A DNA stretch of 64,000 nucleotides from Takakia lepidozioides (lineage: Eukaryota; Plantae; Bryophyta). The notes under the pieces were generated by a model that was not told where the DNA came from, ran no database searches, and saw only the letters and a program-made list of their open reading frames with translations. The stretch spans positions 11,098,001-11,162,000 of the forward strand of contig CM060732.1 of the NCBI GenBank assembly GCA_030704615.1, read 5' to 3'. Positions 8,120 to 63,000 of the stretch are shown here, piece after piece. The first letter of the stretch is position 1; every line of letters begins with the position of its first letter. The position numbers were made by a program, and so were the translations under genes.

Positions 8120-8369
8120 GCAACATTCATCCCCAGTAGCCTAAGCAAGCTCTCTACTTAAACGCGTGACTCCAGCAAGATCCGCTAGCAGTAACTGCAA
8201 GTGAAGTATCCGCCGCAAGCTTAATAGCTTTCTGCCGCTCCGGAATGGTTAAATACTCAGCTGAATTATTCACAGACCTATATAATACCAAGTTATATTA
8301 TAATAGTGCTAAAACAAACATCATATCTAGCTTAGCACTAGAAAACTAGATAGCGTCATCTCTCTCGAG

Positions 8370-8717
8370 TGATTGAAAACTAAACTCACACTGTTGACAC
8401 AAGGACATGAAATACAACACCATCACTCGTTAAACTAAGAGTTGAGTCAGGGGCACCCCAAGCTATGGGGACTCCACCCCACAACATCCTATTCTCCCTT
8501 CATAAGCACACTCAGATTCTAAGCAGTGAAGGAGCTCGGTCGTGCAGGCTCAACTCGAGAGATGAGCCGCACGACTGACGAGCTCGTGAAGATAAGATGG
8601 TTCAGGTGTCAAGCTAAACTTGACACCTGACTTAACACTTGAACTAATTCCAAGTGTTAAATACAAATAACTAGATTTATTCTAGTTAGTTTTACACTGT
8701 GTTTATTTAACTTGATA
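8370..8717 (-). repeat. 5' terminal repeat (X-type LTR segment) of copy 1
   Basis: Shares AGGCTCAACTCGAGA-GATGAGCC, GTGAAGATAA, the three hairpins and the AACTTGA(C/T)A end with 53429-53755. Preceded by the complementary site TCTCTCGAG. Confidence 0.8.
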
Positions 8718-34582: not shown

Positions 34583-36280
34583 TGTCATGGTTTTGGTCAT
34601 GGTTATCTAGAATTACCTACTTCTAGTTAACTAGGACATTTTAGATATTTATATTTATATTTTGTGTGTTGGGACTTCATTGGGTCTCACATGCCAAGTG
34701 AGGCGTCGAGCCTCAATTGGGACATGGGGATATGTTTTCCCCTTGTGAGGATGGAGGAGGCTCATCTTCTTGTAGTTGAGCCTCCATGAGCTTCTCTCAC
34801 CTCCATAGCTCTAGGTATTGAGAGGGAGTGTGTTGAGGGCTTTGTAGGGTGGATTCCCTTGGCAAGGGTGCCCTTGGCTTGACTTGTTTATGTGATAGAG
34901 TGGATTTCACTTGGAAGGACTAGGGCTTGTTCTTAGTGTGATTGCTTCATGCTTTGAGAGTTTTCATTGTCTTCCACTTCTCTCATTTCTCATCTCTTAT
35001 CACTACAAGAAGATCTATTTATGCTTGTGAGTGCGGAGTGTAAGGATTAGTTTTGCACTTGTATATTAAAGAGGTTGAGAGCTAGGAGAATTTAGCTCTT
35101 GTATCACAAGGCTTGCAAGGGGTTGCAAGGAAAGGTGCTCGGGTGTTGCATGCACCAAGGAGTTGGAGAGCTTGAGAAGGAAGCTCTTGAGTTACAAGAT
35201 TTTGCAAGGATTGCAAAGAGGAAGTCTTGTGTGTGTGGAAGCAATGATTCTAGGGTTTGAGAATCCTTTGTATGCATTATGGAGTCAATGGTGTGCGCCA
35301 TGGTTTATGGAGAGTGATTAAAGGATTGTTAGTGCTCATTTCACTATCAAGCTAGGGTTAAGCAAGTTCAAGGTGTGGATGTTGTGGAAAAGAAACCAAT
35401 GAGCTACATAGGCTTGGGCTTGAAGACAACAAGGGCAAGTACTTGGAGAGCACTAAGAAGCTCAAGAGGTTTTTGAAGGGAGAATGTGAAGAAATGTTCC
35501 AATCATGGTGGTGTGGAGCCAAGCTTAGGGCGCCATTGGAAGGGCTTGGAGAACATATGGTGGAAAATCCTTGAAGGAAAATCATCATTCAATGTATGCA
35601 TAGCTTCACCCTAACTATGTAATGTGACAAGAGGGGGAGGCAATACTTGGCTATTCATGCTCTTGGTAATGCGAGCTTTGTGGTGGATAGTTGACCAAGC
35701 AAGTGGTGCATGTGTGGAGCATGCTCTCTTGAGTTTGTAAGTTCAAGTTTGAGAAAGGGAGCTCTTGAACTAGCAAGAGGTGAAGGCCTTGAGATCCATT
35801 TGTGTGTGAAGTGGAGAGGTGTTGATTCATGTTATGATGAAGGAGAGCAACACGTAGGCAAAGAGGTCATGGAACATGCATTCAAATGACTAAGGGGAGC
35901 ACATGGATGATGAATTGGTGCAAGACCCCAAATGGCGTGAGAGTGGGATCCAAGGCGGATTGCTTGGGAGCATTATTGTAAGTGACAAGCATTGCTCCTA
36001 CACATTGAGATAATTTGTGTTGATTTGGAACAATTGTGTGATGAGGAGACAAATGCATGATTGTTCGGCAATGGAGATATGGTAGTTTGCAATCAAATCC
36101 CAAGGACTAGAAGGGGGATTGATTTGGTGGACAATGACTTGCAAGTTGAGTTGGACCACTCTTGGTTGCACATTGGGGTGGAAGAGAGCAAGAAGATGTC
36201 TCTTATGATCACCTAGAGACCATATTTTTGCTTGAGTAGAAGCATAGAAGCCAAGGACTTGCATTCTAGCTCTTCATTAC
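34583..36280 (+). mobile_element. 5' fragment (X-type repeat 34583-35002 plus leader) of a third, divergent relative of the DNMT-Gypsy family
   Basis: TGTCA...TTATCA ends. Hairpin GGAGGCTCA-loop-TGAGCCTCC. The adjacent site CTACAAGAAGAT (35003-35014) is complementary to 34764-34775. Leader motif TGCATGTGTGGAGCATGCT is shared with the copy 2 leader. The right boundary is approximate. Confidence 0.75.
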
Positions 36281-36294
36281 AAACCCTAGTAGTG

Positions 36295-36590
36295 TATGAT
36301 GAGACTATACCTCTGTTAGTATACCAAACAGGAGCTTGTCCCTTTGACTATACCTTTGTTGAGGTATCACCATATGTGAACCCTAATGTGAGACTATACC
36401 TCTGTTAGTATACCAAACAGTAGCTTGTCCATTTTACTATACCTAAGTTGAGGTATCACCATATGTGGACCCTAATCAGCTCAGACTATACCTCTGTTAG
36501 TATACCAAACAGAACCCTCATTTTCAGACTATACCTCTGTAAATGTATCATCAACATAAGGGACCCTAGCAACCTCAGACTATACCTTTG
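36295..36590. repeat. Tandem repeat of about 90 bp with GACTATACCT subunits
   Basis: AGACTATACCTCTGTTAGTATACCAAACAG recurs near 36302, 36391 and 36483. Confidence 0.8.
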
Positions 36591-36595
36591 TGTCA

Positions 36596-42045: not shown

Positions 42046-42093
42046 CAAGTAACTCCGCAACACCGTGCAAGAATTCCGAATTCAGAACTAATC

Positions 42094-42282
42094 TGTCGTG
42101 CGCATACATATCGCTACACAACTACATCGCTGTCCAAAACCACACAACACATGTGCACACCACACACTAGTATACCACTAGTCTACCACTAGTCCAACCA
42201 CTAGTCCAACCACTAGGCTACAACTAGTCAGTCACTAGGCTGCCACTACGCTGCCCACTATGGCAGTCACTAGTCCACACAA
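42094..42282 (-). repeat. Terminal repeat Y, outer copy (189 bp)
   Basis: Direct repeat of 42612-42780 plus a 20-bp insertion; contains many CACTAG motifs. Confidence 0.95.
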
Positions 42283-42609
42283 TGATAAAGAAGAAGAATA
42301 CAAGCACAAGCTCATGCGAGCTCACAAAGCTGAAGCATAAACTCAGGCATATATAACCTCATCACTCAAATACAAGTCAAGCCAAGTGCACCCCACGCCA
42401 TGGGGAATCCACACTACGGCGCCATAGCTAGGCGCGGTGAGGCTCAACTCGAGAAAGATGAGCCTCCCGCGCTTGCCGTGAAGATAACCACTCCAGGGCC
42501 TAAATCTGCCTTGACCCCTGGATTGACACTTGGGCCAATCCCAAATGTCAATATGTAAAAGCTAGCTATTTCCTAGCTAGTTTCACACTAGTGGTAAAAT
42601 AACTTGACA
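42283..42609 (-). repeat. Terminal repeat X, internal 3' copy (327 bp)
   Basis: Direct repeat of 53429-53755. Confidence 0.96.
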
Positions 42610-42611
42610 GC

Positions 42612-42780
42612 TGTCGTGCGCATACATATCGCTACACAACTACATCGCTGTCCAAAACCACACACTAGTATACCACTAGTCTACCACTAGTCCAACCACT
42701 AGTCCAACCACTAGGCTACAACTAGTCAGTCACTAGGCTGCCACTACGCTGCCCACTATGGCAGTCACTAGTCCACACAA
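42612..42780 (-). repeat. Terminal repeat Y, inner copy (169 bp), preceded on the element strand by PPT AGGGGGGCGA (42781-42790)
   Basis: Read directly. Joined to X through the palindrome GACAGCTGTC (42606-42615). Confidence 0.95.
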
Positions 42781-43039
42781 TCGCCCCCCTAGCTGGTGCT
42801 TAGGTCCCTCTAAGTCCAGGTAGCCACAAGATGTGATAGTGACCATAGCCTCACTAAGTCCTCCACCACTATCCCTACTACACTCAAACTCGATAGATCA
42901 AGAGGCCGGGTGCAAGAGTTGCCCCATCGTTAGTCGCCGTCTTGCAACCTGTGAACTTGAGCTTGGGATCTCATGTATTGACTCCTATGAGCTTGGCCTC
43001 CCATGTCTTGTTAGCTGCCTCCAGTCATGTCCACTGCCA

Positions 43040-46000
43040 CTATCCCAAGCAGTGTGGACACAACCAATCTCCGTCAGGAACCTTCTCAAGGGGTGGTGTC
43101 AAGCATCCCATATGCCAACCCCTTGAGCACCGATCACACACCAGCATGGTGGCTGCCCCTTTGGCAGACCCACAGAGCATGCACCTCAAACCTGCAGGTA
43201 CCACTGCCAAGTTTGGGTCAACTCTGCCATCGACATTGGGAAGGTGACATGGCGCACAATTACGCACATGGTCTCTCCAAGTCATGCCATCCCGACCCTC
43301 TAAGATCAGGACCCCTGAGGGCAACACCTCTCGAACCCTCAGAATAACACGCCCTGCAGTAACATCCAGAGTCGTAGGAGCAGTCTGCTGCAAATAAACA
43401 TAGTCACCAGGGCTAAACCTCCGAACCCCAGGACGATATCCTCCACCACGTATAGTGGCATACCTCAACGTATCACGGTGCTGTGCAATGGCAAGGTTCT
43501 CAAAAGCCATGGGCATGACTTTCTTGAACAACTCTGCACGCTGATCACATGCACGTACCCACACGTCCGGATCGTCAAGGTTAAGGACTTGAGCAGTGTC
43601 CCTACGAATGGCTGCAGGCAAATCCGGCTCTCGGCCAAAGAGAAGGAAATATGGTGAGAAGGAGGCAAGTGATGCTTGTTTGCTGAACCTGTAGCCCATG
43701 GCTAACCAAGGAACCTGAAGATCCCAATCTCCTAGGTGTCCCTTCTGCAAGCCATACTTGCGCAAACCCCTCTTCACCGTCTGAACAACTCTCTCTGCTA
43801 AGCCATCGGCCTCAGGATGATCCCGAGAAGTGGTGCGGTGGTCTATCAAGGCTTTATCACACAAAGCCTGAAACTCCCCCAAGAACTCTCTCCCTTGGTC
43901 CGTGAGTACCTCAGCTGGAGCACCAAATCGGCTAAGCACACGATCCAAGAATGCATACGCAGCCCCCTCACTAGCCTTGTCAGGCAATGGAACCAACTCA
44001 ATCCACTTGGAGAAGTGCTCCACCATCACCAACACATATCTGTGGTGGCGCATAGTCAGTGGCAACGGTCCTGCGAAGTCAAGACTCCACCTGTAGCCCA
44101 ATCCCATGATTGGTAAAGGATGCAACTGTGGTGTAGGGGCGTTGAATGAAGCACGCACCCTGTCACACACCATGCACCTAGCCACAAACTGTTGCACCTC
44201 TGTATGCATACCACGCCACCAATACTGCCCCTGCAGTAAACTGTGAGTGCGTCGCACTCCAAAATGCCCCAACTCCTCATGGGCATGCCGCACTAACCGT
44301 GCACGCTGTGTGGGGTGAGGCACAATCCTCACCCGACCATCCTCCCACACTCGAAGTAGGTGTATCCCCTCCCACTTGAACCTCTTGGCTCGTTGCAGGA
44401 TCCGATCCCTCTCCCTGGCAGTCACAATGGCTGCCGTGTCTCCCGTGCGGAGGTAGTCCAACACAGCCGAATCCTCATGTATATCTCTGGCACCACCTAG
44501 CTCATCACTAGCCTCAGGGTCCTCAGACACTCCGTCTACAGTCATCCCTGTTGTAGGTCCAATCTGACCTCCCGATGCCAAGATACACAAAAATGCAGAT
44601 GCGTGCCATCCCGGCACCATCTCCTCGTCCGTCTCACCATGCCACCGAGCTCCAGTGTCATCCTGCTGGCTCATGCATGGATTGCGACTCAATCCATCCG
44701 CATCCCGATTGACCAAACCCGGTCGATGCACAACCTGAAAGTCATACTCCTGGAGTATAAGTGCCCACCGTGCAAGCTTCCCCGTAAGCTTGTCTGACTC
44801 CATCAACCACTTGAGTGGCTGGTGATCCGTGACAAGGGTGAAAAGATTGCCGTATAGATAGCACCTGAAGTGTGCCACGGCCCACACTGCAGCTAAGCAC
44901 TCTCCCTCATATGAGCTGTACTTAGCCTCTGCAGCGTTGTTCGAGCGGCTAGCGTAAGCCACTACGAACTCTCTTCCCTCATCATCCACCTGTGTGAGCA
45001 CCGCTCCAAGCCCCAGCATGCTCCAATCCGTATGCAGCTGAAAGGGACGCCCCCTGATAGGTCGTCTCAAGATAGGCGCCGAGGTCAACCTCGCCTTGAG
45101 CTCTTGAAAAGCTCGTTCCTGCTCATCTTCCCACTGCCACTCCTGGTCCACCTTGGTCAGCTTGGTTAGAGCCTTTGCAATGGTACTAAATCCCTTGACA
45201 AACCGTCTATAATAGTTTGCCAACCCCATGAAAGCTCGAACTCGGCTCACATCCGTGGGGCGTGGAATTTGTGCAATGGCCTCTACCTTAGTCTGCTGTA
45301 CCCCCAATCCTCCAGGATATATCATGTGACCCAGATACTCAATCTGGTTGTGGAAAAACTTGCACTTCCCCGGATGCAACTTCAATCCGTGCGCTCTCAA
45401 GCGCTCCAATACCACCTGAAGGTGTCTCTCATGCTCCTCCATCGTAACACTAAAGATGATGATGTCATCTATGTAGCACCGAGCAAAGTCCACCCCTGCT
45501 AGAATCCTATCCATGACTCTCTGAAACTCTGCAGGAGCATTCTTAAGCCCAAATGGTAAGAACCGCCACTGATATAGGCAATCCTTGCCGTGCTCATTGA
45601 TCCCCCAGAATGCCGTCTTCTGCTTGTCCGCCTCCTTGATTGGCAACTGGTGATATCCGGATCGTAAATCCAAAGTGCTAAAGGCCTTAGCATGCCCGAT
45701 GGCATCAAAGATCTCCTCTGGTGTTGGCATGGCATACTTATCGGACTTGGTCTGACGATTTACAGGCCGGTAATCACCGCACATACGTCTCTCCGTCCAA
45801 TTGCCATAGACATCCTTCTTGGCTGGCATCACTGTGGCTGAAGCATACTCTCCACCAGAGAGCTCCACCAAACCTGCCTCCCAGAGATCTTGAGTCCTCA
45901 TCTGAATCAAAGACCTCTCCATGTCACTGTATCTATAGGGTCTCCGAAAGATTGGCGTGTCAGTGGCCAACTCAATACGGATCTCTTGACCCTTCAGTGC

Positions 46001-46174
46001 TCCCAAGTCCTTCAAACTGAAGGCAAAGCAATTCCTGTAAGCCCTCAGGAACCGCCGTATACGTCGTCTCTCTCCTCCGGTGACAATGGGTCCAATGTCA
46101 GGCTCCCAATTGTCCTCCGTAACTACAACCTTAAGTCCAGTGGGCTTAGAGGTAGAGGACGCGTCCCGTGGTTG
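43040..46174 (-). CDS. Pol: RT - RNase H - integrase - PHD finger; intact frame starting directly after the UAG at 46175-46177
   Basis: YIDD; LHTDWS; HEELGH...CMVC; D-D-E residues in SLDFAG, LTDQG and AERVV; C-terminal C4HC3 motif CMLC...CDRC...WHMGC...WLCPHC. The 53 codons between the stop and 46015 are open. Confidence 0.95.
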   Translation of the reverse strand, partial: QPRDASSTSKPTGLKVVVTEDNWEPDIGPIVTGGERRRIRRFLRAYRNCFAFSLKDLGALKGQEIRIELATDTPIFRRPYRYSDMERSLIQMRTQDLWEAGLVELSGGEYASATVMPAKKDVYGNWTERRMCGDYRPVNRQTKSDKYAMPTPEEIFDAIGHAKAFSTLDLRSGYHQLPIKEADKQKTAFWGINEHGKDCLYQWRFLPFGLKNAPAEFQRVMDRILAGVDFARCYIDDIIIFSVTMEEHERHLQVVLERLRAHGLKLHPGKCKFFHNQIEYLGHMIYPGGLGVQQTKVEAIAQIPRPTDVSRVRAFMGLANYYRRFVKGFSTIAKALTKLTKVDQEWQWEDEQERAFQELKARLTSAPILRRPIRGRPFQLHTDWSMLGLGAVLTQVDDEGREFVVAYASRSNNAAEAKYSSYEGECLAAVWAVAHFRCYLYGNLFTLVTDHQPLKWLMESDKLTGKLARWALILQEYDFQVVHRPGLVNRDADGLSRNPCMSQQDDTGARWHGETDEEMVPGWHASAFLCILASGGQIGPTTGMTVDGVSEDPEASDELGGARDIHEDSAVLDYLRTGDTAAIVTARERDRILQRAKRFKWEGIHLLRVWEDGRVRIVPHPTQRARLVRHAHEELGHFGVRRTHSLLQGQYWWRGMHTEVQQFVARCMVCDRVRASFNAPTPQLHPLPIMGLGYRWSLDFAGPLPLTMRHHRYVLVMVEHFSKWIELVPLPDKASEGAAYAFLDRVLSRFGAPAEVLTDQGREFLGEFQALCDKALIDHRTTSRDHPEADGLAERVVQTVKRGLRKYGLQKGHLGDWDLQVPWLAMGYRFSKQASLASFSPYFLLFGREPDLPAAIRRDTAQVLNLDDPDVWVRACDQRAELFKKVMPMAFENLAIAQHRDTLRYATIRGGGYRPGVRRFSPGDYVYLQQTAPTTLDVTAGRVILRVREVLPSGVLILEGRDGMTWRDHVRNCAPCHLPNVDGRVDPNLAVVPAGLRCMLCGSAKGAATMLVCDRCSRGWHMGCLTPPLEKVPDGDWLCPHCLG

Positions 46175-46177
46175 CTA
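46169..46177 (-). promoter_or_regulatory. Putative stop-codon readthrough signal UAG CAA CCA (copy 2)
   Basis: Single in-frame stop between DNMT and RT. Matches UAG-CARYYA and is identical in copy 1. Confidence 0.8.
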
Positions 46178-49100
46178 TGCTGCAACCTCTTGAGCAGTAC
46201 TCCCTACCTGCTCAGTCAATGACAAGGCATCATCCTGCCCCATCATCTCATCCTTGAGGACCTCCTCAACTCGAGAAGAATCCCCAACCTCATCCATCAC
46301 AGCCGCCTTGGCTGCCAACTCCCTCTGAACCTCGAGCACCTCCCACGTGTGCCATGGATGCATGCACCCCGTGGTCCTCATATGCTCGCCCCCACTCACT
46401 GCCTGTACCGTCTCGGTAGGCAGAGAGACCATTGAGGGAAGTGTATTCCGCACTCTGCGTTGCTCAGCTAGAGCCAAGCTGATAATCCAGGTCAAGCAAT
46501 TGAGATCCATTGCTTGCCCCAACACTTGACGACGTGATGCCTCAGAAAGAGACGACACCGCCGTGGTACCAGTGGTAAAACCCATTGCCCGCTCACGCTC
46601 GTCAGCATTAGGCTCCACTAACTGCTGCAACTGAGCATCCCACAGGAGGCCAGGTCCACTATCCCGGAAAGCATGCGATCCTGGGAAGCTGAGCAGTGTA
46701 GGTAATGCTGCTCGTGGTTGACCCACCTTGTTGACCACTGCCAAAGGCGAACGGTCATCGTGTCTCACACGTTGAGACTGCCTCCCTGTGTCCAGAATGT
46801 TATCCACTGTGAGATGTGCTGGCCGCTGCACCCCATCAAATGCACGCTTGAGCAGTGCGGGTGGCATCATGTTAGTCCACCATAGCCGTGGACGATGAGC
46901 CCGTGACCCCACTGTAGCTGCATCTAGCAACACTGCTGACCCAAGCCACGACCGGACTTGATGCACACTGGCCATCACCCTGGCCCGAGAATCGCCCATC
47001 AGTGGCACATTCTCCAAGATGTATGCTGGAGATACAGCTTGATGAAGCTGCAAGTGGCGCAAAACCCGCACCATCTCCCAAAACAGACCCGACCTCGAGT
47101 CTCGCAATCCATTGCCATGCCCGGCTGATGAATGCCCTTGGCAGGGCCAACCTGCCACTACCAGATCAATGGAGCCAACCCGCTCCAAATCCTGCGCCCC
47201 CAGCAACGAAATGTCTGCTGGCAAGGCCTGCTGATATCCACGAATTGCAGACACCGACAACAACTCAGGGTACCGCTGCACCAACTGAGCAACATGGCGA
47301 AGTGAAACGCGTCGTGCAGTCTCATCCCTCTCCACATACAGGTAACGCCGAACTCGTACACCTGCCTGTAACAAAGCAGCCAATCCGGTGCTGATCCCGC
47401 CAAACAAGTCCAGAAGACAAATGCCTTCATCCGGAGACTGCCACACAATAGGTGTGGTGTCCAATGGAGACAATTGAGGTGGTCCTGGTGCAATCCCCAC
47501 ACTCTCCTCCTCTCCTGACGGTACAAAAGCCTCCACCCAGGCTTGTTGCACCCGTCGATCAGCATCCCGCTGCAAATCCTTGCTCGTGCCCCACAATGGA
47601 GTCTGAGCAACCATGGTAGGCAACTCCGCCATACCATACATGTCATCCTGCTCTCCCGGAGGTGGTACATCCTCTGAATGAGCATTGCCCTCAAGCAACT
47701 CTCTAGGCCAACTCACTGCCGCTGTGAATGCTGCTAGTGTCGGCATCTTGCCTCGCTGGGCAACCGCAACTCCTCCTATGAACGTCACAGGGAGCTGCAC
47801 ACGCCGGCCCTCCCCTGACTGCCATGCAGGCCTATAGGAAGCTGACTCCTCCCAAAAATCCAGGGTGAAGCCCATGGGGTACAACACTGCCCCACCAACC
47901 AGGACATCGTATGAGACTGCGTCTGTCACAATGGCCTTGGCTCGCATCACTGAGCCATCTGTAGGGTGATCCGGCCGTAGTCTGATAGCCAACTCATGCC
48001 GTGTCATGCCCCGAGCCTGCTCCGATCCTCCCAGAGACGTCTGTATCTGGAAAGGACAAGGCTCCATATCCGCCTCCGTGAGGCCCAAGCCTGCAATAGC
48101 AGCTCTGCCCAGCATCAGTGGCTGAGCTCCCGAGTCCAACAAGACTCGCAGTGGCCGGTACCTCTTGCCTGCCGGTCCACTCAAACAGAAAATGCCATCC
48201 TGGTTGTCTAACATGACAACTCCAGGTGTCACCATGGCGCGCTCAATGGCTGGCCTAGCTGGCAGCTCCATCAACCTGGCAGCTGCAGCTTGCCATGGCG
48301 CCGCCGTGGCAGTCTTGACCCTCAAATCCGAGGATCCCTCCGGCACTACACCTCCCACTATCTCCGCAGAAGATGAAGTAACCTCCCCACTCTCACAGAG
48401 TGTAGCTGCCAGCCTGAACACCTCAGCTGGTCTTATCCCCGGCGTCGCAATCATGGTAGCCGAGAACAATGGAGCCTGGCACACAGATGTGGCCGCTCCT
48501 ACAGCACACTAGCTGCCGTAGCCTTGGCAACACTAGGTAGTGGTGCTGCCCGTGTAGCTCTCCCCAATGGCATAGTAACCTCCGCCTCGGTAATAGTCGG
48601 GCGAGAACTAGGTGCCATGGATGGCGTCGACACTGTCTCCGCCAATGTGAATGACTGAGGAAGCCTAGCCTGACGGCTTGCCTCCCCACGCTGTGGATCC
48701 AACTCCACCTCTGCACCTCGTGGCTCAGGAACTCGTGCTGCTCCTCGAGTCACGGCTGCAGCAGACTCCACCTGCACTAGTGGTAGTGCTGCTCCACACA
48801 TGAATCCCATGCCTCCCATATCTCCTCCCTCAGGAGCAGGAGGTGGACCATCCGGCCTTAGAGCCGGTACCACCTGAGCTGTAGCCATGGCAGCGAGCCT
48901 CTGCTCTAGCTGCTGAAGCCGGTTGGCCATGCCTTGGTCAACACCCTGACCTCCGCGTCCTTGGCCACGTTGAGCTTGCCCTTGGCCTGCACCTCGTGGC
49001 TGGCCACCTCGTCCTCTCTGGGCTGCTCCACCTCGCCCCCGGCCACCATTGTTCCCTTGGAACTGGCCTGGGCGCAACTCAGGATGCAAACCTATAACAC

Positions 49101-50346
49101 TGGGCCTCTCCATGCCCGTGCTTGCCACAATGCCCACACTGCAACTGTGCAGGCTGTGCATGTGCCGACCCTTTGCCTCCCTCTGGGCAATCCTTCTTGA
49201 CATGGGGTCCTCCACATGTCCAGCACACCACATCCGCCCGTTGTTGGCCAGCAAATGAAGGGAGAGACCCCTGCATTGAGGTCCTCTCTGCCCTTCCCTG
49301 AGCTTCACCTGAGCCCCCTTGTTGCCTTGAGCACGTTGAGGTAGTGGTTGGCTAGGAGCACCACTACCCCGTGGTGTCTCCTTAGCAAATCCCACCATGA
49401 CCACTCGTTCCTCCACCATGTTGAGCTCTATCCGCTCTGCCAGCAAAAACACATTTGCTAAGGTGGGTTGGGCCGCTTGTAGGAGAGTTGCATCCCGCAC
49501 CCTTCTCCTCAGCTCCTTGTCCAATATCCCATACCAGAATTGGACTGCCTGAGCTTCCGTAACCCCTTGGGTTACATTTATCAAGCGCCTCATGCGAGTG
49601 AAAGCCTCCCTCAAGCTCTCGGTCGGCTTCCGTTGGAACTCTTGCAAGCTCCGCAACTTCTCTGTCCTCACCCCTTGGTAGTTCCCTCTCAACTCTTCGA
49701 AGAACTCCACAACAGGGTTGAAGGCAGGCACGGGTGCTAGTGCTGGTGCGGTAGTGGCTTGGGTGGACGTCGTAGCTACTGTACCACCAGTCCCACTGCT
49801 GCTTGCTGAAGCTGCCGGTGCAGCGGCAGGTGTAGCCACTGCCCTCGTGGCTCTAGTGCCCCTAGTGATGGAGACATAGTCGGGTGACCAGTACATCCTC
49901 CACTCCTCGATCTCAACCTCATGCCCCCGCCTGAACTCATGGTAATCATCCATAGGCGGCCCCTCAAGGTGCTGAAACAGCCCTTTCCATGCCATGAACG
50001 GCGTAAATAGTTGTGGATTGCGCATTTGCTGCAAATCACACCAACTATCAAACTCTTGGATAAAATCATCCAACTCAATGGTGCCCACCGCCCCAGAGTA
50101 CCTTCGTGGCCCCTTGGTAGCTCCATACATCTCCTCCATTGTGTCCCACAATAATGGCAAAGAAACAACTTGCACCGCCTGTATGAGCCCTCCTGATTCA
50201 CAATCCGAATCAGAACCTTCCGTGGAAGACACAGGAGGTGAAGGTGGCCTAAACCGCACACCTCGTCTCGTGTACCCACTAGTATCGCTAGTGCTCGAAC
50301 CGGCACTGTCCCCAGCAACTAGTGGCACCTCCGTGTTGACACTCAA
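46175..50346 (-). CDS. Gag - aspartic protease - DNA (cytosine-5) methyltransferase polyprotein (MTase about 46490-47425); a few 1-bp indels
   Basis: Gag with two CCHC knuckles (shifted frame 49079-49276) and protease LLDSGAQ. MTase motifs I DLFGGISTG, IV GWPCQG, VI ENV, VIII AHRPRLWWTN, IX ERERAMGF and X RRQVLGQAMD. The break near 48500 is open in copy 1. The true start codon is uncertain. Confidence 0.92.
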
Positions 50347-50637
50347 CCGGTCATGAACATGTCCCTAACCCCCTCTCCACAAGGTAACCGGGTAGAGAAC
50401 CTGTTGCGGCTTATGGTTTGGAATACTAAGTTCCTAACATAGCCTACACCTGAACTTGCATGACCATGGGAATATCATGAAGATACTCCTCAAACCGCCC
50501 TCCACGAGCTTCAAAATTCGGCCTTCCAGACCACATGCCAGTCCTTAGTCCACCAGTGCCTCCACAAGTCAGCACATGCCATCCACAGGTCAACACGGGC
50601 CACCACAGACCAGCACAGGCCCACACAGCTCACTGGT

Positions 50638-51890
50638 CACAGCCGTCACAGTCCCACAGGCCACTGGGCACAGCCCCTCACAGCCCCTCACAGCTCGTCA
50701 CAGCCTCAAAGGCCTCAGGCACAGCCTGTCACAGCCCCTCACAGCCCGTCACAGCCCCAAAGGCCTCAGGCGCGGCCTGTCACAGCCCCTCACAGCCCGT
50801 CACAGCCCCAAAGGCCTCAGGCACGGTCTGTCACAGCCCCTCACAGCCCGTCAGAGCCCCAAAGGCCTCAGGCGCGGTCTGTCACAGCCCCTCACAGCCC
50901 GTCACAGCCCCAAAGGCCTTAGGCGCGGCCTGTCACAGCCCCTCACAGCCCGTCACAGCCCCAAAGGCCATGGGCACGGCCTGTCACAGCCCCTCACAGC
51001 CCGTCACAGCCCCAAAGGCCTCAGGCGCGGCCTGTCACAGCCCCTCACAGCCCGTCACAGCCCCAAAGGCCATGGGCACGGCCTGTCACAGCCCCTCACA
51101 GCCCGTCACAGCCTCAAAGGCCTCAGGCACGGCCTGTCACAGCCCATCACAGCCCCAAAGGCCTCAGGCACGGCCTGTCACAGCCCATCACAGCCCCAAA
51201 GGCCTCAGGCACGGCCTGTCACAGCCCCTCACAGCCCGTCACAGCCCCAAAGGCCTCAGGCGTGGCCTGTCACAGCCCCTCACAGCCCGTCACAGCCCCA
51301 AAGGCCATGGGCACGGCCTATCACAGCCCCTCATAGCCCGTCACAGCCCCAAAGGCCTCAGGCACGGCCTGTCACAGCCCATCACAGCCCCAAAGGCCTC
51401 AGGCACGGCCTGTCACAGCCCCTCACAGCCCGTCACAGCCCCAAAGGCCATGGGCACGGCCTGTCACAGCCCCTCACAGCCCGTCACAGCCTCAAAGGCC
51501 TCAGGCACGGCCTGTCACAGCCTGAGACAGCCCGTCACAGCCCCACAGGGCACAGGGCACAGCCTGTCACAGCCCATCACAGCCCATCACAGCCTCAAAG
51601 GCCTCAGGCACGGCCTGTCACAGCCCCTCACAGCCCATCACAGCCCCAAAGGCCATGGGCACAGCCTGTCACAGCCCCGCACAGCCCGTCACAGCCCCAA
51701 AAGGCCACTGGGCACAGCCTGTCACAGCCTGACACAGCCCGTCACAGCCCCACAGGGCACAGGGCACAGCCTGTCACAGCCCATCACAGCCTGTCACAGC
51801 TTGCCACAGCCCATCACAGCCCGTCACAGCTCGCCACAGCCTGACACAGCCCGTCACAGCCCGTCACAGCTTGCCACAGCTTGCCACAGC
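50638..51890. repeat. Tandem array of 51-bp (some 41-bp) units built from 10-bp TCACAGCCCS subunits, in the element leader
   Basis: The unit TCACAGCCCCTCACAGCCCGTCACAGCCCCAAAGGCCTCAGGCGCGGCCTG is repeated more than 20 times. Confidence 0.96.
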
Positions 51891-53416
51891 CCCACACATG
51901 GCCGCTCTGGCAGTTTAGCCATTTCTCCAAGGGGTTTAGCCACGCCAAGCTAGGGTTTGTGTCTCTTGGACTCTAGGCTTCTTTCCACCGAGCTATGGTG
52001 GCTGTGAGGAAATCAGCAAGGTATCCTTGCTCTTTCGGCTCCCACACACCACCATAGTAGCCCTAAGCCATGAGGTGGTTGCCACAAACCAAGCCTTCTT
52101 TCTCACTTAGCCTCCCCAAACACGCCACTAAACTCAATGGCAAACAACCAAGTCCTGCTGGTTCCCAGCCCTTGTGAGCACTCATTCAAGCACTCTCCTT
52201 GGCCATAGCATCTGTCTTAGAGCCTCTTCCAGCCCCCTACACCTGCTGCTTCAAGAGTTGCGCTCCCTTCAAGCTTGAAGTTGAAACCCCAACTCACATA
52301 TGCCCTACAAGTGCTTTTCTTTCACTCCAAGTGGAAACCAGCCCTAGACCTTCCGTTCTAGCTCTCTAAAGCTTGAAAACAAGAGCCTCAATGGGCTGAA
52401 GGCATGCTCCACACATGCCCCACTCTCACCATAAAAGAATCAGCTCCTTTGCTTCATTTCTTACACCCACAAACCTGAAAATACAAGCTTCAGCATGCTG
52501 AAAGCATGCTCCACATGCCCTACAGGGAAACCAGCCCCTTCCTTCCTTTCTTGCACTCCCACACCTGAAAGTGCAAGCCTTCACCAGGCTGATAGCATGC
52601 TCCACACATGCATTGCCCTCACATAAGGGAAGTCAGCCCTTCCCTCTTCCTTGCTTGCCCTCCAAGCTTGAAGATGGAAGCTTCAATGAGCTGAATACAT
52701 GCTCCACACATGCAACCTCTTCACACAAGAGATATCAGCCCCCTATCTTGGCTCCTTGGCTCCTTGATGCTCTCTAAGACAAGACTAAGCACTCCATAGC
52801 CTTTGCCAAGCTCCTGAAACCCTAAGGCTTACATTTCCAGCCACAAGACACTTCTCTTGTGGTGCAAGAGCTCTTCTTCCAAGCTCTGTAACCCTAGGTG
52901 CACATTCCATGGCCTTGCCGCACCTCTTAGCTCCTGTTCCAGCCCTGCTCTCGCCATGACAAGAGCCCTCTCAATGCTGAAGCTCGAGATTGAAACCCAA
53001 TCTCACCATACTCCACAAAGTGCACTGATTTGCCCCAAGCCAAATCAGCCCTTTCGCTTGGTCTTGCAATCCTTCACACAATGACAGCTCGCATTCCCAA
53101 GTCCAGTTCTCAGCTTTGCCACCAAAGCCACTATAACCTGCTCTTGACTGGTCCTCTTCCCAATCGTGCTTGCTCATGCATGTACACAATCTGGAACCAT
53201 CAAGGTGCTCTGGAATTACCTGCAGCATGGTGCTTTCATCTCTGAAGCTGAAGATCGAATGCCAAGGTCTACCACCTCGTAACCCACATCGCCTCCGCTT
53301 CTAACAACTAAGAGCTCCGCGGTGCTCCTTGCATAACAACTTGGTTTCTCTCATTCTCAAGCAAAAACCACAAGTGCTACAACTAACTCGTATCTGGCAC
53401 TCATAGATACGAGCTG

Positions 53417-53428
53417 ATCTTTCTCGAG
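53417..53428 (-). promoter_or_regulatory. Non-tRNA primer-binding site CTCGAGAAAGAT, complementary to 53594-53605 inside repeat X
   Basis: Abuts the 5' repeat, lacks the TGG of tRNA PBSs, and shows perfect 12-nt complementarity. Confidence 0.8.
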
Positions 53429-53755
53429 TGATAAAGAAGAAGAATACAAGCACAAGCTCATGCGAGCTCACAAAGCTGAAGCATAAACTCAGGCATATAT
53501 AACCTCATCACTCAAATACAAGTCAAGCCAAGTGCACCCCACGCCATGGGGAATCCACACTACGGCGCCATAGCTAGGCGCGGTGAGGCTCAACTCGAGA
53601 AAGATGAGCCTCCCGCGTTTGCCGTGAAGATAACCACTCCAGGGCCTAAATCTGCCTTGACCCCTGGATTGACACTTGGGCCAATCCCAAATGTCAATAT
53701 GTAAAAGCTAGCTATTTCCTAGCTAGTTTCACACTAGTGGTAAAATAACTTGACA
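53429..53755 (-). repeat. Terminal repeat X, 5' copy (327 bp)
   Basis: TG...CA ends, followed by the TSD AATC. Confidence 0.96.
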
Positions 53756-54695
53756 AATCATTGGATGGTATGGATCGTAAGTCGATCAATGCAATAATTT
53801 GATCCTGTCGCTGAAGTGGATTACCGCAGTGGAACCCCTCGGCCAGTGGGGATTGCAGCCTGTCGGACTCCCATCAAAGTTCACCTCATCCTCCCAGTGG
53901 CAGAGGGGTTCCATATCACCTAACCTGCCGTTAAGAGACGCTGTAGAACCGGCAAAGAGTCTCAGTGTATACAATTTATCCCAATCTTAACATGAGGTAA
54001 ATGAATGAATACCGAAGTTCAAACTGAGGCTGTATCAATTTACTATGATTCATTTACTTTTACTCTCCCCTTGAAGAGATGGGCTCAAACCTTCCAAAAT
54101 AAAAATAGAATAAAAGACGCATTGCTTGGAACAAACACCCATACGGTAGTGTCTGTTCCGTCACAAAGGTAGTGTCTGTTCCCATTTGTTTCGCCAACCA
54201 GGGCATTGGTAAATTTAACCTGATCCCAGATTTCTTCATTCTCTGAATCGAGGATACAAGTAATCTGGAAGTCCGGGGTCCAAGGGTGTTGCGACATTGG
54301 AATGAGCGTTTGAGGCTATTGGGCTCTCAAGTCAACTTCAGAGTCAGCTTCACACTATTTCTATTTCCTTGTGACTGTTGGGGATATATGAAAGGATCAC
54401 ACAAAAGCAGGTCACGTCGCAACTTACTGCAACCCGGTCTGTTGTACCGTAGTGGGAGCCATTGATTCTACAGCTCATAAGGTCCGGTTATATGATTTGA
54501 CCTTGCTGGGGTGCCCTTGGGACTGAAGATTAGATCATTCCGGAATTTGACGTCATAAAAGTGTATAACTCGTCACCCTTTTCGCTCCCATGCATATGTG
54601 CACACGAACTGTGTTCCCGATTTTGCCCTCAGTGTGTAGGAGGATGGGAACAGAGGAGTTAGGGTTTAAGGATACATCGTTCCCTTGGTCCGAAC

Positions 54696-57162: not shown

Positions 57163-58569
57163 ATGGCGAGTGATAACCATTTGGAGGTGGAGCAGTTGCG
57201 TTTATCGGTCTCATCTCGCGATGCACATCATGTCGCCATTGGCGATCCACATCATGTCGTCATTGTGGTGTATTCTGTTACGGTAAAATTCGCCGACAAT
57301 CGTCGGGAGTCGTTTTACAGATTTCCTTTGCAGAAAGATGAGAGCCGCGATCACGACATTCGATTGGCAGTTCTCCGTGCAATTACTTCCTCCGTCGTGG
57401 GTATAGAGTCCTTGGAGCTGCAACCGCCCGACACGAAGTCACATTACGAAGTGGAGTGGCAGGAGTTCTGCAGAGGCTTGTACTCCAACCAGACTTTACG
57501 ACACCTAGTCATCGGGTACTATGTTGTCGACGTAGACGGACAATTGAGTATGGTACATCACGTTGCAGAGATGCTTCGCGTGAACAACTCTCTAAAACAT
57601 CTTGAGATTGATGGGATAGCCATCAACACATATTCAGCCAAGCTCTTGGCTGTCGCTTTGCCTGAAAATCGTGCCCTGCAAAATTTGCATTTGTCTCAGT
57701 CCTTCTTTCTGCCTGTGTCTACATCCCGCGGGTCGGCAGAGGGAGTGCAAATGTTGGTGGCTCCTTTGGTTGCCACAGATCCATTAGGCTCCAACTCTGT
57801 GCTGCAGACGTTACGGATGGGGTGTTGTCTCGGATACGATAACGTCGGTTATGATGAGGCAGCCAAGCACGTGGCAGCGATGCTGTGTGGCAATTCTTCC
57901 TTGTTGGAGCTTGAGTTAATGTATTGGAATATGACGTCGGAGGGCGGTGCTGCTATCGGCAGGGCTTTGGCCACCAACACCACCCTTACAACTCTAAGCG
58001 TGTATGGCTGCAAGATTGGGGCGGATGGTGTGGAGGCGATAGCACAACATCTCGCACACCACAATTCTTCTCTCACACGCCTTAATGTTGGCGACACTTG
58101 GAGTACAGAGATAGAGGGAAGCAAGGCAGCCAACGCATTGGCCAACATGTTTCGATCCAACTCCACGTTGACCAATGTGGACGTGTCACGTAGTCGGTTT
58201 AACGAAGAAGGTATTGTGGAACTCTTCAAATCACTGGCCACCAACACGTCTTTGACAGACCTTGATCTTAGGGGTTGCGAGGTTGTTGCCGGGGACAGGG
58301 TGTTGGCAGCAATCGGGGATTCACTGCGAGCCAATCTGTGTCTACAAAGACTCCTTACAGATCAATCTTCCTTGAGCATTGTAGATTGGAGTGGTGTAGA
58401 GAGAAGGGAGCAGCAATCGGTGTTACGAGGAATGATGAGATCCGTGAGTCCGGAGGCAGCGAGCGTGTTGACTTACGGCGCCGCTGGTACTCAACCATAC
58501 TTCCACTTTCTCATATTACATTCGTCCTGTTTTGCTTTGCACCTCTTGAGGACGCCGCATGTAATGTAA
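57163..58569 (+). CDS. RI-like LRR protein (TORNADO1-like N-terminus), copy B, open frame
   Basis: ORF 57007-58569 with first ATG at 57163 and the same LRRs as copy A. No downstream ROC-COR exon recognised. Confidence 0.75.
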   Translation: MASDNHLEVEQLRLSVSSRDAHHVAIGDPHHVVIVVYSVTVKFADNRRESFYRFPLQKDESRDHDIRLAVLRAITSSVVGIESLELQPPDTKSHYEVEWQEFCRGLYSNQTLRHLVIGYYVVDVDGQLSMVHHVAEMLRVNNSLKHLEIDGIAINTYSAKLLAVALPENRALQNLHLSQSFFLPVSTSRGSAEGVQMLVAPLVATDPLGSNSVLQTLRMGCCLGYDNVGYDEAAKHVAAMLCGNSSLLELELMYWNMTSEGGAAIGRALATNTTLTTLSVYGCKIGADGVEAIAQHLAHHNSSLTRLNVGDTWSTEIEGSKAANALANMFRSNSTLTNVDVSRSRFNEEGIVELFKSLATNTSLTDLDLRGCEVVAGDRVLAAIGDSLRANLCLQRLLTDQSSLSIVDWSGVERREQQSVLRGMMRSVSPEAASVLTYGAAGTQPYFHFLILHSSCFALHLLRTPHVM

Positions 58570-60061
58570 CAAGTTACTCCGCAACACCGTGCAAGAATTC
58601 CGAATTCAGAACTAATCATTGGATGGTGTGGATCGTAAGTCGATCAATGTAATAATTTGATCCTGTCGCTGAAGTGGATTACGCAGTGGAACCCCTCGGC
58701 CAGTGGGGATTGCAGCCTGTCAGACTCCCATCAAAGTTCACCTCATCCTCCCAGTGGCAGAGGGGTTCCACATCACCTAACCTGCCGTTAAGAGATGCTG
58801 TAGAGCCTGCAAACATTCTCAGTGTATACAATTTATCCCAAGATAAATGAATGAATACCAAAGTTCAAACTGAGGCTGTATCAATTTACTATGATTCATT
58901 TACTTTTACTCTCCCCTTGAAGAGATGGGCTCAAACCTTCCAAAATAAAAGTAGAATAAAAGACGCATTTCTTGGAACAAAAACACACATACGGTATCCG
59001 TATATTGCTGCGGTGCATCTAGTTCTGCTGTACTGGTCCCGTCTCGCGAAAGCTTACTCAATCCCTCCACCAACTTAGTCAAGCCAGTCACAAGTTGATG
59101 GAAGACCCACCTCTGTCTGACAGGCTGTCGGGTCCTCCACATGCTGCGTCTGGATGTGCTCACCAAATGTTTCCATTGGATTCCATGCCATTGCGCAATT
59201 GCATTCTTAGGTTTGTTCTTGTATCATCAGCCCCCACTTCTGCTTTTTGCATTTAGCAGTCAACCATAATCAACCACAAGTACTGTAGAGCGAGAGATCA
59301 CGGAGAATCATCAAGAGTTGGTGAAAAGTCGAGATCTGATGATTTCACATGCGATTGTGGTGATGGGTGGTGTGCGGTCTCAAGGCTCGTATTCCAGGAA
59401 CAGCTGCTCCGGTTGAGAGTAACAAGTGGTGTGTATCCGTGCAGGGGTTAATGACTATGGTGGAGAAAAGGTCAAAAGCAGCAACAGGAACCAAAACCAT
59501 GTGGTATGAGGTCTCCTCGTCACTCCTTGGGGGTACCAAATGGTATTGTCTACGATTGGTGTATGTTAGGCTAGGTCATAGGTGCAAGTGAGTGTGTCTG
59601 GAAGAGGTCATCGTCTCAAAGTTCCTTTCTTTTGTCATGGTAACAAGCGGACCCTTACCGCTTGGGGGCAGCCCTCCGCCCAAATTGGGCAGTCGTATGC
59701 TCTGTCTAGCATACTCGGCACTTGGGCTCGGGTTGGTTCCTGTGCTTAAACTTATAGCCTGCGACTACAATCAAAATTTTAGCTCCTATCAACATCAACA
59801 CTCCTCAGGGTGATTCCTGGGAATTGGTTACTTATGCCAAATCTAGGGCTTCATGTGTAGTTTTTGGGGCGAATCCCAGGATGGACGATGTGTCCTTTAA
59901 AACTACATGCTCTAGCTTAGGCTTGGATTTCATGGCTAATGGTTCCATCTCGAGACTTGATAACAGGGGTACGTTGAAGGTTGCAATGACCAAAAGTGCT
60001 TCTAATAGAGTCCCACAGTCCCTTGATTGGCTGGAGAGCGGTCTTAGACATTGGTGATTCA

Positions 60062-63000
60062 ATGGGGCGCTCTAGGAAGACAACCAAGGGCAAGGACTTC
60101 AACTTGAGAGTTTCTAATCGGTTTGATGCTCTGGATGAGGTTGAGTCCAAACGGCCAGAAGGACAAGATGCCCCTAAGTGTACGGAACCTGAACGTCCTG
60201 AATCTGAAGGATTTTGTACTCTGAATGGTTTACCAATCCTCAAGGTTTACACAAGACGAACAAATTCTATACACGGGGTAATTGTCCCCAAGCCGTCAGA
60301 TGGACAATCTGTCCCTAAGTGTGCAGAGCCTGAACGTCGTGTAACTGAAGGATTTGGTACTCTAAATGGTTTACCAATCCTCAAAGTCTACACAAGACGA
60401 GCAAAATCTATACACGGGGTAATTGTCCCCAAGCAGTCTGATGGACAATCTGTCCCTATGTGTGCGGAGCCTGTGCGTCGTGTAACTGAAGGATTTGGTA
60501 CCCTGAATGGTTTACCAATTCTCAAAGTTTACACAAGACGAGCAAAATCTACACATGGGGTAACTGTCCCCCCTTTGCAGAACGGTTGGCCGTCCAGGAG
60601 CAATCACAAGCTACCTAGACGACAAACAATTCACATGCAAAGGGCTGGCTTGCGGCTGGCCACTTTCAACTTCTCAGGGTTGACCAACCAAAGGAAACAA
60701 CTTGAAGTGGGACAAGTTCTTCGGACTAATGATATTCATATCTGTGCTGGGCAAGAAACATGGGAAACGTCGGATAAACTGGTTGGAGATGTCAATGGTT
60801 ATAAATGGGCAGGTAAGATGTGTACTCTCAAGGCAGCCTCTGCCAAACGTGGTCAAAAAGGGGTTGGATTCTTTGTCCGTGATTTCTTGTTTGACAATTG
60901 TGAAATTATCAACAAGGGTTTGAGGTACGAGCATAGTATCTGGCTAAAACTGAATCTGAAGGGCGGCATGAGTACGAAGGACCTCTTTGTGGGTTGTGTT
61001 TACATGCCCACAGAGGGACCCTCAGTGCTGACGCAGACAAAGCCTTCGAAGATGTAAAGCTGGACTGTGCTTCGTTCCTTGCCAAAGGTCAGGTGGTGCT
61101 ATTGGGTGACTTCAATGCCCGGGTGGGCAAAGGGCTCCATCAGGACGATATCATTGGGCCTTTTGGTGAGGACGAGCTGAATTCTAATGGCAGACGGTTA
61201 ATTAACTGCCTGGAAGAGCTTCAGCTTTTCACCTTGAATAACAGGACAAGAGGTGACCAAGTGCAGTGGACTCGTGAGAAATCCCAAACTGGGGAACGTT
61301 CCGTTGTGGACTATATCATAATGGACAAAAATTTGTTCCCCCAGTGTGCCAATGTGTTGATCGACAGAACTGATATTGGTACCTCTGACCACTTCCTGGT
61401 TTGGACTGAGATCAAAAGGTGTTTTCCCAACACCAAGAGATCTGTGAAACGTTCGATTCGGAAGTGGCGCATAGAAGAATTCCATAATGAGGAGGTCAAG
61501 GCTGAGTACGTCCAGGCCTTGCAAGAGGCTCTCCCTCATTTTGTCCAATCGCTCCAAGAACTTCAGTCTCGCTCTGACAACGCAAGAAATGAAGTCGAAA
61601 GAGCAGTGGACTCTTGGGAGAGTTTCGTTTCCTCCGTGGCTGACAAGATCATTGGGAGGAAACTAATTGTCTGCGGTAGAGCTGTTAATTGGTGGACCAA
61701 TGAGATTAAATTCAAGATAGCTGAGAGACGAGCCCTCTATAAAGAGTGCTGCAATTTGAAAACCAACAGAGAATTGTGGGCGAGGTACTACCAGCTCCGT
61801 AAAGATATCAATCAGCTTGTTAGGTCTCAGAAGAAATTATACTGGGACAAGTTATACAGTGAAATAAACTCAAACCACCATGGTGGTAATGACAAGAAAT
61901 TCTGGTTGGCCCTTCAACGTTTGTACAAGCCGAAAAACGGTCAGCAAGTACAAGCGCTGAAGACTACTAAAGGTGCAGTGGTGACTTCATCGGTTGACAT
62001 TGTCAAAACCTTTGAAACTCACTACAGTATCCTTGGCAGAACTTCTAGGTCTAACAGTGAGGGGTCTTTTGCTGAATGGAGGGACACAGTTGGAAAAACT
62101 GTTCCTATGATTCAAAACAGCCCTGATGAACTGGAGTATATTTCAATGGCTTATAACGCTCCCATTAGTTCTTCTGAGATTGTGGAAGCAATTGAACATT
62201 TAAATGGATATAAAGCTGGTGGACCTGATGGTATTGTCAACGAGCTTATCAAGCACGGTGGCGATCCCATGATAGAGGCCCTAGTTCTCCTCTTTAACCT
62301 TATCTGGAAGACTGAAATGATCCCCTTTCGCTGGCGACAGGGGGTCATTGTCAATCTATACAAGAAGGGTGACAGAGAAGAACCGGGGAACTACCGTGGC
62401 ATCACGCTCCTCAATGCTGTTGGCAAGACATTCTGCAGAGTTATAAGTACTCGTCTCGAGGTTGATCTGGAGTCTAGAGGTTGTTTCCACGAAGGCCAAG
62501 CTGGCTTTCGGCAAACAGGGGCTGTGTGGATCATATCTTCACTCTAAGCCAGATTATCCAGGGAAGGAAAAAAGAAGGGAAACCCACTTATGTTTTTTTC
62601 CTGGATGTCAAAAAGGCTTATGACACAGTGTGGAGAGATGGCCTATGGTTCCGCCTCTGGTCTTGTGGGATCAAGGGAAAGATGTGGAGAGTTGTCCACA
62701 ACTTGTATGCTCACACCAAAAGCTGTGTCACTGTTAACGGACAGAAGTCCAACTTCTTTGACATAGACCAAGGTGTAGCTCAAGGATGTACTCTCTCCCC
62801 TCTGCTCTTCAATGTTTTCATCAATCAACTCCTCGAGGATGTGGAAAGTGAGGGATTTGGGTTAAGGGTGGGTGATACCACCATACCAGCCCTTATGTTT
62901 GCGGATGACTTCGCAGGCATAGGGGAGACTCCAACCAATCTCCAGGAGTTGATTGATTGCGCGAAGAGATACTTTGATCTTTGGGGGCTAGAGGCTAATG

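Follow-up and report, generated by a model that had tools for sequence, protein, structure and literature searches.

What primes reverse transcription in a retrotransposon whose primer binding site (PBS) matches the interior of its own terminal repeat? The question is raised by a 64,000-nucleotide stretch of Takakia lepidozioides DNA (the window), for which a preliminary description proposed tRNA-independent priming, with the PBS covarying with a hairpin loop inside the repeat in three related copies. Self-priming itself is already known: it has been shown in Tf1 and is predicted in the Tf1/sushi, Tcn1 (83%) and TAR (89%) lineages, and in no non-chromovirus gypsy lineage (PMC6317226). The Tf1 RNA's first 11 bases pair with its PBS and RNase H cuts between bases 11 and 12 (PMC7175516), and the 5' structure comprises three duplexes (10.1101/2022.12.06.519325). 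Finding a self-primer signal in a chromodomain-less clade would therefore point to a separate origin or a wider spread of the mechanism.

A Ty3/gypsy element with a DNA methyltransferase and split repeats

The PBS belongs to copy 2 (53755-42094, minus strand; Table 1), a retrotransposon of 11,662 bp at whose 5' end it lies. Copy 2 runs X (327 bp), PBS, ORFs, polypurine tract (PPT), Y (169 bp), GC, X' and Y' (189 bp), with GATT on each side. Two complete direct LTRs are not present in copy 2, its 5' end being X and its 3' end Y-X-Y. Gag, protease, RT, RNase H and integrase follow the Ty3/gypsy order, the gag match being weak, and the best solved relative of the pol region is Ty3 Gag-Pol (E 6.5e-96). 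The pol region includes a C5 methyltransferase (PF00145, E 1.2e-12), and a PHD finger occupies residues 997-1041 of the integrase ORF, in which a domain search gave no match to a chromodomain or SH3_Tf2-1. Pfam returned no tyrosine recombinase in the ten ORFs of at least 150 aa. On these domain matches and repeats, copy 2 is a Ty3/gypsy element with a DNA methyltransferase, a PHD finger and repeats arranged as X…Y-X-Y.

Table 1. Features of copy 2 and of the related repeats in the window
Feature	Position	Strand	Basis
Non-canonical TTATCTT at the TATA position, 28 bases upstream of predicted start	53627..53633	-	sequence reading
Hairpin 5' arm GGCTCA; predicted untranscribed in 5' copy save its last base	53605..53610	-	inferred from predicted start
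Predicted self-primer, the RNA's first 12 nt, ATCTTTCTCGAG	53594..53605	-	12/12 to PBS; covaries in six variants
TTGAGCC: hairpin 3' arm, or duplex 2 arm in 5'-truncated RNA	53587..53593	-	folding
GGCTTGAC, covarying partner of G-TTGAGCC (duplex 2)	53522..53529	-	folding and covariation
GAGTGATGAGG, pairs with X end and first PBS bases at 53436-53426 (duplex 3)	53503..53513	-	folding
5' repeat X, copy 2 (327 bp, TGTCA…TTATCA)	53429..53755	-	1 difference from X' 42283-42609
PBS CTCGAGAAAGAT, adjoins terminal CA of X	53417..53428	-	sequence reading
Hairpin after PBS; arms 53414-53405/53395-53386	53386..53414	-	sequence reading; variants inside
gag-like ORF	48502..50364	-	weak Retrotrans_gag match, E 0.003
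Protease and C5 cytosine methyltransferase ORF, in-frame TAG at its end	46175..48508	-	profile and ORF reading
RT-RNase H-integrase-PHD ORF	43040..46174	-	domain matches
Polypurine tract	42781..42794	-	sequence reading
Repeat Y (169 bp)	42612..42780	-	repeat comparison
Palindrome GACA-GC-TGTC at Y|X' join, predicted integrase cutting site	42606..42615	.	also in seven other-family loci
3' repeat X' with second primer hairpin copy (42464-42441)	42283..42609	-	repeat comparison
Terminal repeat Y' (189 bp, 20 bp longer than Y)	42094..42282	-	repeat comparison
4-bp target duplication GATT, other copy 53759-53756	42090..42093	-	empty paralogous site; empty allele
Copy 3: X 34583-35002, partner 34764-34775, PBS 35003-35014	34583..35014	+	12/12, sequence differs from copy 2
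Copy 1: X 8717-8370, partner 8562-8554, PBS from 8369	8358..8717	-	match 9/9

The nearest named proteins come from the liverworts Calypogeia, Riccia and Marchantia (77-79% identity over the aligned part), followed by Klebsormidium and Closterium, an order that probably reflects a bryophyte host. A 33-row RT-RNase H tree, from which Tf1 and Tcn1 references were left out, groups the window element with Marchantia and Calypogeia (support 100/97) inside a 24-row clade that also holds Klebsormidium, Closterium and Tetraselmis rows (100/99). Two Marchantia proteins, Mp_2g26090 and MARPO_0091s0058, have the same methyltransferase domain joined to RT, and extend Dnmt-bearing gypsies to land plants.

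Several features of the coding region and leader deserve mention in their own right. The translated methyltransferase ORF (46178-48508, minus strand) shows FGG, PCQ, ENV and RPR, which we take to be C5 methyltransferase motif labels. An in-frame TAG separates the protease-methyltransferase ORF from RT (46177-46169, minus strand; 1160-1152 in copy 1) and is followed directly by CAA CCA in both copies. Across 38 loci checked at this site, TAG-CAR occurs in 28, TAA-CAA in five and other contexts in five; in L035, L038, L046 and L082 the TAG precedes CAG TTA, CAA TCA or CAA CCA. This context agrees with the UAG-CARYYA readthrough signal, in an unusual placement between methyltransferase and RT. 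The 5' leader contains nested tandem arrays with 10-bp and 51-bp units (50577-51918).

The primer binding site matches the element's own repeat

On re-reading, the PBS-partner matches of the three window copies proved correct in every coordinate and sequence given for them, at 9, 12 and 12 bases in copies 1 to 3. There is zero spacer in copy 2 between the end of X (…TTATCA, 53429) and the PBS (53428-53417), whilst the PBS of copy 1 pairs 9/9 at 8369-8361 before a 2-base register slip; in all three copies the T after the match pairs with the last A of X. At least 10 bases complementary to the inside of the 5' LTR, starting 0-5 bp after it, is the pattern by which the methods of PMC6317226 define a self-primer, and it is seen here, copy 1 having 9 bases in register. 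Among the variants listed from a DNA run of the same organism, none at 3% or above falls in the PBS, partner or stem of copy 2, and positions 53416, 53404, 53408-9, 53611-2 and 53618 do vary.

Copy 3 is a special case, as its X and PBS lead into a partial RNase H-integrase-SH3_Tf2-1 region (35003-38210). The pol fragment behind its X is 29% identical to copy 2 and about equally close to SH3-bearing gypsies, and no X or Y match occurs downstream of it. By these comparisons copy 3 is a relative of copy 2 by its repeat only, and a chimera or nested insertion.

To the window copies we added metagenome relatives at 87 loci, comprising the best 80 of 246 confirmed stretches and 7 further loci. Three more PBS sequences with their own partners came from these: CTCAAAGAACT (L031, 11 bases), CTTGACAAGAATGTC (L035, 15) and CTTGACAAAGAT (L082, 12). 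L031 was taken to represent its family because it is well preserved; the assemblies of L035 and L082 are collapsed or circular, with X and the PBS following Y. Among the six repeats, own-X matches of a PBS span 9-15 bases and matches to the five other X span 3-8; the own match recurs in 0-1 of 2000 dinucleotide shuffles of X for each. When the variants are anchored without gaps, the nine positions nearest the primer 3' end and the flanking T:A are Watson-Crick paired in 6/6, and two or three pair types occur at 8/11 primer:PBS positions. An 8-row alignment gave 6 pairs that are 100% paired, against 27-44% when slid, a count limited to six pairs because MAFFT gapped the primer in four rows. The large metagenome family offers 15 distinct 5' ends, two of which have no partner, whilst two pair 11/11, two contain one G-U and nine have 1-3 mismatches; these copies are decayed, since X and X' are only 86-92% alike where comparable. 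L084 gave no self-primer match of at least 11 bases. Covariation across the repeat-PBS alignments of the family thus bears out the preliminary description: pairing is kept in six variants, and complementarity is retained rather than lost in the relatives L031, L035 and L082.

All six PBSs start with CT, and none has at its start the TGG that would complement a tRNA's CCA end. Neither the window nor the 87 loci contain a tRNA by ARAGORN, and Rfam gave no match at 53200-53800. The six sequences that each match their own X only, and the lack of TGG and of an Rfam match, support the tRNA-independent priming that had been proposed. It could still be argued that a host tRNA, tRNA fragment or other small RNA acts as primer and that the match inside X is incidental, as half-tRNA primers exist in plant Ty1/copia lineages (PMC6317226) and our tRNA search covered the window and 87 loci, not the host's full tRNA set. 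We regard this as highly improbable given that 0/6 PBSs begin with TGG (the rule used in the methods of PMC6317226), that the six differ from one another and each matches its own X alone, and that Rfam gave no match. Since the PBS matches the element's own repeat and covaries with it, the first bases of its own RNA are likely to prime copying; the match is real, and Tf1-type self-priming explains the element best, a conclusion that we hold with considerable confidence.

A hairpin that spans the predicted RNA start

The RNA would start at the partner, with 53605 as the predicted first base, and its 5' end would fold onto the PBS. The primer would then be cut off after its last G, probably by the element's own RNase H as in Tf1, and the freed 12-nt primer could start reverse transcription without a tRNA. 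The partner is enclosed by a GGCTCA…TGAGCC stem (53610-53605/53592-53587 in copy 2, 8568-8563/8552-8547 in copy 1, from 34759 in copy 3), and the last A of the GGCTCA arm is also the partner's first base. With the predicted start inside it, this hairpin would be able to form in the RNA's 3' copy (X') alone; there its folding probably shields the second primer copy, together with the strand-transfer site, from the PBS.

A plant TATA box is expected about 30 bases ahead of the start. TATAAA, TATAAT and TATAGC stand 30, 29 and 29 bases upstream of the partner in L031, L035 and L082 respectively, and in L030, whose PBS end is missing, TATACC stands 31 bases ahead of the equivalent position. At 28-33 bases the window copies show just TTATCTT or TATGTT, and no canonical TATA box. 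L077 combines the split layout with a TATA box that is followed by no such hairpin.

Folding is consistent with the same start. RNA begun at the partner (one base early) folds into primer:PBS, duplex 2 and duplex 3 (z -5.6), whereas in RNA begun at the end of X a local hairpin buries the partner instead. Duplex 2 joins the hairpin 3' arm to a motif 65-139 bases downstream, lies wholly inside X, and changes on both sides between variants (GTTGAGCC with GGCTTGAC; with GACTCAAC; GTCAAGC with GCTTGAC). Because both use the hairpin 3' arm, duplex 2 and the hairpin are mutually exclusive, and since duplex 2 covaries, an RNA form free of the hairpin must matter. Duplex 3, the only one of the side duplexes adjacent to the PBS, pairs GTGA with the end of X in 5/6 variants.

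The modelled strength of primer:PBS pairing needs careful interpretation, as the folding program represents no loop-PBS pseudoknots. With the start at the partner, pairing reaches 0.59-0.99 in 6/10 loci (copy 2 0.59, copy 3 0.91, L035 0.77, L082 0.91, also L018 and L054) and 0-0.29 in 4/10 (L031 0.18, L022 0.29, L076 0, and copy 1 0 at 12 nt in register, 0.61 at 9). When at least 25 bases are kept upstream of the primer end, it falls to 0.00 in copies 1-3, L022, L031, L076 and L082; the modelled switch fails in L018, which stays high, and L054, which stays mostly high, and is partial in L035, where pairing drops only from 40 bases. In the 3'-copy context, opening the partner would cost 4.8 kcal/mol in copy 2, 4.4 in copy 3, 8.7 in copy 1 and 7.5-13 in the relatives, set against a primer:PBS duplex of -16 to -18 kcal/mol (-17 to -18 in copies 2 and 3). 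On this modelling, masking of the 3' primer copy would be weak in copies 2 and 3.

All six variants retain a hairpin that encloses the partner, with differing sequences, whilst in L031, L035 and L082 the partner is base-paired within a 12-bp stem. The hairpin is, from this comparison, conserved as a structure and not as the sequence GGCTCA…TGAGCC; the placing of the partner in the loop of that stem holds for the three window copies and does not extend to these relatives. The second hairpin that had been described after the PBS of copies 1 and 2 exists in copy 2, the predicted fold of copy 1 using another stem. Regions after the PBS fold no better than shuffles (z -0.76, -0.13 and -1.69), and with such scores and the genomic variants inside it, selection on this hairpin is not supported.

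These data bear on the second route that had been put forward, a loop-PBS pairing possibly supplied by the 3' X copy. Worked out further, it would have transcription begin ahead of the hairpin, which would stay intact and, most simply in its X' copy, supply the primer; the priming hydroxyl would come from cleavage behind the last G of the partner, or from a 3' end of the RNA at that point. This route is helped by the conserved hairpin, by the lack of a canonical TATA box in the window copies, and by copies 2 and 3, whose partner lies largely within the loop and would take little energy to free (4.8 and 4.4 against -17 to -18 kcal/mol). However, the stem-bound partners of L031, L035 and L082 would cost 7.5-13 kcal/mol to open, the TATA spacing points at the partner's first base, and the covarying duplex 2 needs the hairpin 3' arm to be free. 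In addition, a 12-bp helix is unlikely to form within a closed 12-nt loop. We therefore consider loop-PBS pairing improbable and favour Tf1-like priming from a predicted start near 53605, which TATA spacing, folding and the covarying duplex 2 all support.

Five distinct X copies (L005 1768-2075, L007/L008, L021, L047 and L070) have lost the primer hairpin, wholly or in part, through small deletions, which suggests that this hairpin also forms in DNA.

Split repeats and a probable integrase site inside the repeat

The ends of copy 2 are fixed because there is both an empty paralogous site and an empty allele (4 shared letters) in the DNA run from this organism. Two LRR-gene copies, 97% alike, stand in tandem (40719-42093 plus 53753-54148, compared with 57242-58996), and the insertion lies in one of them; the DNA run supplies the empty allele of this site. 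The extra 20 bp of Y' lie between two TGTGTGG repeats and are absent from Y, though X and X' differ at 1 base.

GACA-NN-TGTC occurs at the Y|X join in the window, in L030, L035, L038, L077, L082 and L083, and in the GC-rich L084, and the integrated ends correspond to this palindrome minus its two middle bases. Among 11 two-ended copies, seven have an exact 4-bp duplication, two a 3/4 match, one a damaged X start, and one is unresolved; such duplications are found with both layouts, X…Y-X-Y and X…Y. The conserved palindrome and the duplications suggest that the integrase cuts inside the repeat. No conserved TG stands at a fixed offset at the predicted left end of the cDNA.

Within the large metagenome family, 34 informative 3' ends comprise 12 Y-X-Y, one truncated Y-X and 21 Y alone. 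Y precedes X at 0/14 intact 5' ends, against Y-X on 13/34 3' ends (Fisher p 0.0097); these counts were made after merging shared flanks, with L053 merged with L054, and with L028 (which ends at Y) and L001/L002 (X start missing) left out. The mirror form X-Y-X…Y is likewise absent from all three window copies. We rejected a one-off integration accident as the source of the layout, as 12 distinct insertions of one metagenome family share it, and so do L030, L077 and L083.

Given the split repeats, the element likely integrates through a site inside the repeat. Ordinary LTR copying would give linear DNA with Y+X at each end; the integrase would then likely cut GACA-NN-TGTC between Y and X, dropping the two middle bases, and insertion would duplicate 4 bp of the target. 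If the two cDNA ends left over were joined, X…Y-X-Y would result, whereas a one-repeat intermediate or Y-Y' recombination would produce X…Y. The simplest reading is thus ordinary LTR copying of Y+X, an integrase cut within the repeat and joining of the leftover ends. Absence of the mirror form suggests that the integrase prefers the left repeat. In the standard displacement model the left repeat becomes double-stranded first, and it may be favoured for this reason.

At the X'|Y' joint, the base that immediately precedes the PBS adjoins the one that immediately follows the PPT. It is flush in 10/12 insertions, L005 having an 18-base filler and L015 a PPT remnant (read by eye). Being an exact join of the two predicted cDNA ends, it would also suit a variant in which priming is Tf1-like and the layout arises when completed two-LTR circles are cut symmetrically, at one or the other Y|X site, and foamy-virus integrase is reported to cleave the palindrome of LTR-LTR circle junctions (PMC1180852). 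Cutting at either site should leave the mirror form X-Y-X…Y, which is found at 0/14 intact 5' ends against 13/34 3' ends with Y-X (assembly bias or later recombination may contribute), and so we think this variant unlikely.

The layout might instead be inherited as in PAT/Ngaro elements, the 3' end of the RNA serving as template for Y' and the X'|Y' joint. The same A-coding-B-A-B arrangement is described there (PMC7192593, PMC5890265), most joints are flush, and the window Y' contains 20 bp absent from Y. Y and Y' differ by 0.067 within an insertion and 0.088 across insertions (permutation p 0.0004; 14 aligned, three duplicates dropped, n=11, some rows of partial length). Y-Y (0.088), Y'-Y' (0.090) and Y-Y' across copies (0.088) reveal no separate Y and Y' lineages, which counts against such inheritance, as do the PBS, the PPT, the DDE-type integrase, the 4-bp duplications and the absence of a tyrosine recombinase by Pfam in ten ORFs. 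We give this explanation little credence.

A bolder reading is that a green-plant gypsy clade has rebuilt both ends of the LTR cycle, with self-priming through an RNA switch, in which the start-spanning hairpin disarms the 3' primer copy, and with a mid-repeat integrase site, preferred in its left copy, so that leftover cDNA ends must be joined for every viable insertion. This composite is tentative, and we would place it slightly short of an even chance. If it is true, then it would represent a DDE-integrase route to Ngaro-like split repeats.

Relation to known elements

The element shares with Tf1/Tf2 of Schizosaccharomyces pombe, with Tf1/sushi more broadly and with plant Tcn1 a PBS placed right after the LTR CA and complementary to 11-12 LTR bases at the predicted start, as well as the Ty3/gypsy domain order and a multi-duplex 5' structure, here a predicted one. 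Unlike Tf1/sushi it has a PHD finger, no chromodomain match, a DNA methyltransferase and split repeats; unlike Tcn1, with a 5-bp duplication in 100% (supplement of PMC6317226), it has 4 bp. It also departs from Tf1 in that its duplex 2 lies wholly in X, with a strand that is not PBS-adjacent, and in the hairpin that spans the predicted start. As it has no chromodomain match, no 5-bp duplication and no two complete LTRs, we have not filed it under Tf1/sushi, for all its Tf1-like priming signal. SM-Tcn1 is described as being without a detectable PBS (PMC2864245), and the passages searched in PMC3350952 say nothing about PHD elements.

KnitGypsy-Dnmt3-like is the label that suits the element best. 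KnitGypsy-Dnmt3 of Klebsormidium nitens is presented with gypsy domains and DIRS-like A-coding-B-A-B repeats in the legend to Fig. 4c of de Mendoza 2018 (PMC5890265), the single source of the name 'KnitGypsy' in the literature searched, and the two share a gypsy pol with C5 methyltransferase as well as these repeats. The window RT falls within the same 24-row clade as Klebsormidium proteins, which carry no KnitGypsy label. KnitGypsy-Dnmt3 is described from K. nitens only, unlike the window element, whose relatives include liverwort proteins. A passage search of the main text of PMC5890265 turned up no treatment of primers or target sites, and the priming and internal integrase site proposed here go beyond that account; for the window family, neither is described in the literature searched, which lay mostly outside subscription papers and Repbase reports.

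Likenesses elsewhere are partial. PAT/Ngaro elements have split direct repeats, A1…B1-A2-B2 (PMC7192593), whereas the window element has a DDE-type integrase, PBS, PPT, TG…CA ends and 4-bp duplications, with no tyrosine recombinase found. As in foamy virus (PMC1180852), the integrase is predicted to cut an internal palindrome of two joined attachment ends, but the foamy-virus palindrome arises from joining cDNA ends, whereas that of the window element is fixed in the repeat and the true end joint probably stays uncut. TAR (Houba/Osr-1), with its predicted self-priming, is a Ty1/copia lineage (supplement of PMC6317226). The moss Phygy and the clubmoss Selgy are, like the window element, non-chromovirus gypsies with 4-bp duplications, but use tRNA-Trp and tRNA-Ala (supplement of PMC6317226).

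A remark in a figure legend put the split layout on record in 2018, and the exact boundaries now make it testable. It would defeat finders that seek two complete LTRs, and annotations of bryophyte and algal genomes may in consequence understate an abundant family. In viral-contig scans, one search gave no locus and the other a single distant element, L081, without the split layout.

Family members also occur in records titled as bacterial MAGs (L082, over its whole length, and L083-L086), and these are likely eukaryotic contaminants. L082 closes on itself with a 127-bp overlap, as a collapsed repeat or a one-repeat circle would. Elsewhere the window contains a PPR gene, two AT-rich arrays of units of about 79 bp and a LINE-like endonuclease-RT region (15461-17397, 30283-34494 and 59990-63500).
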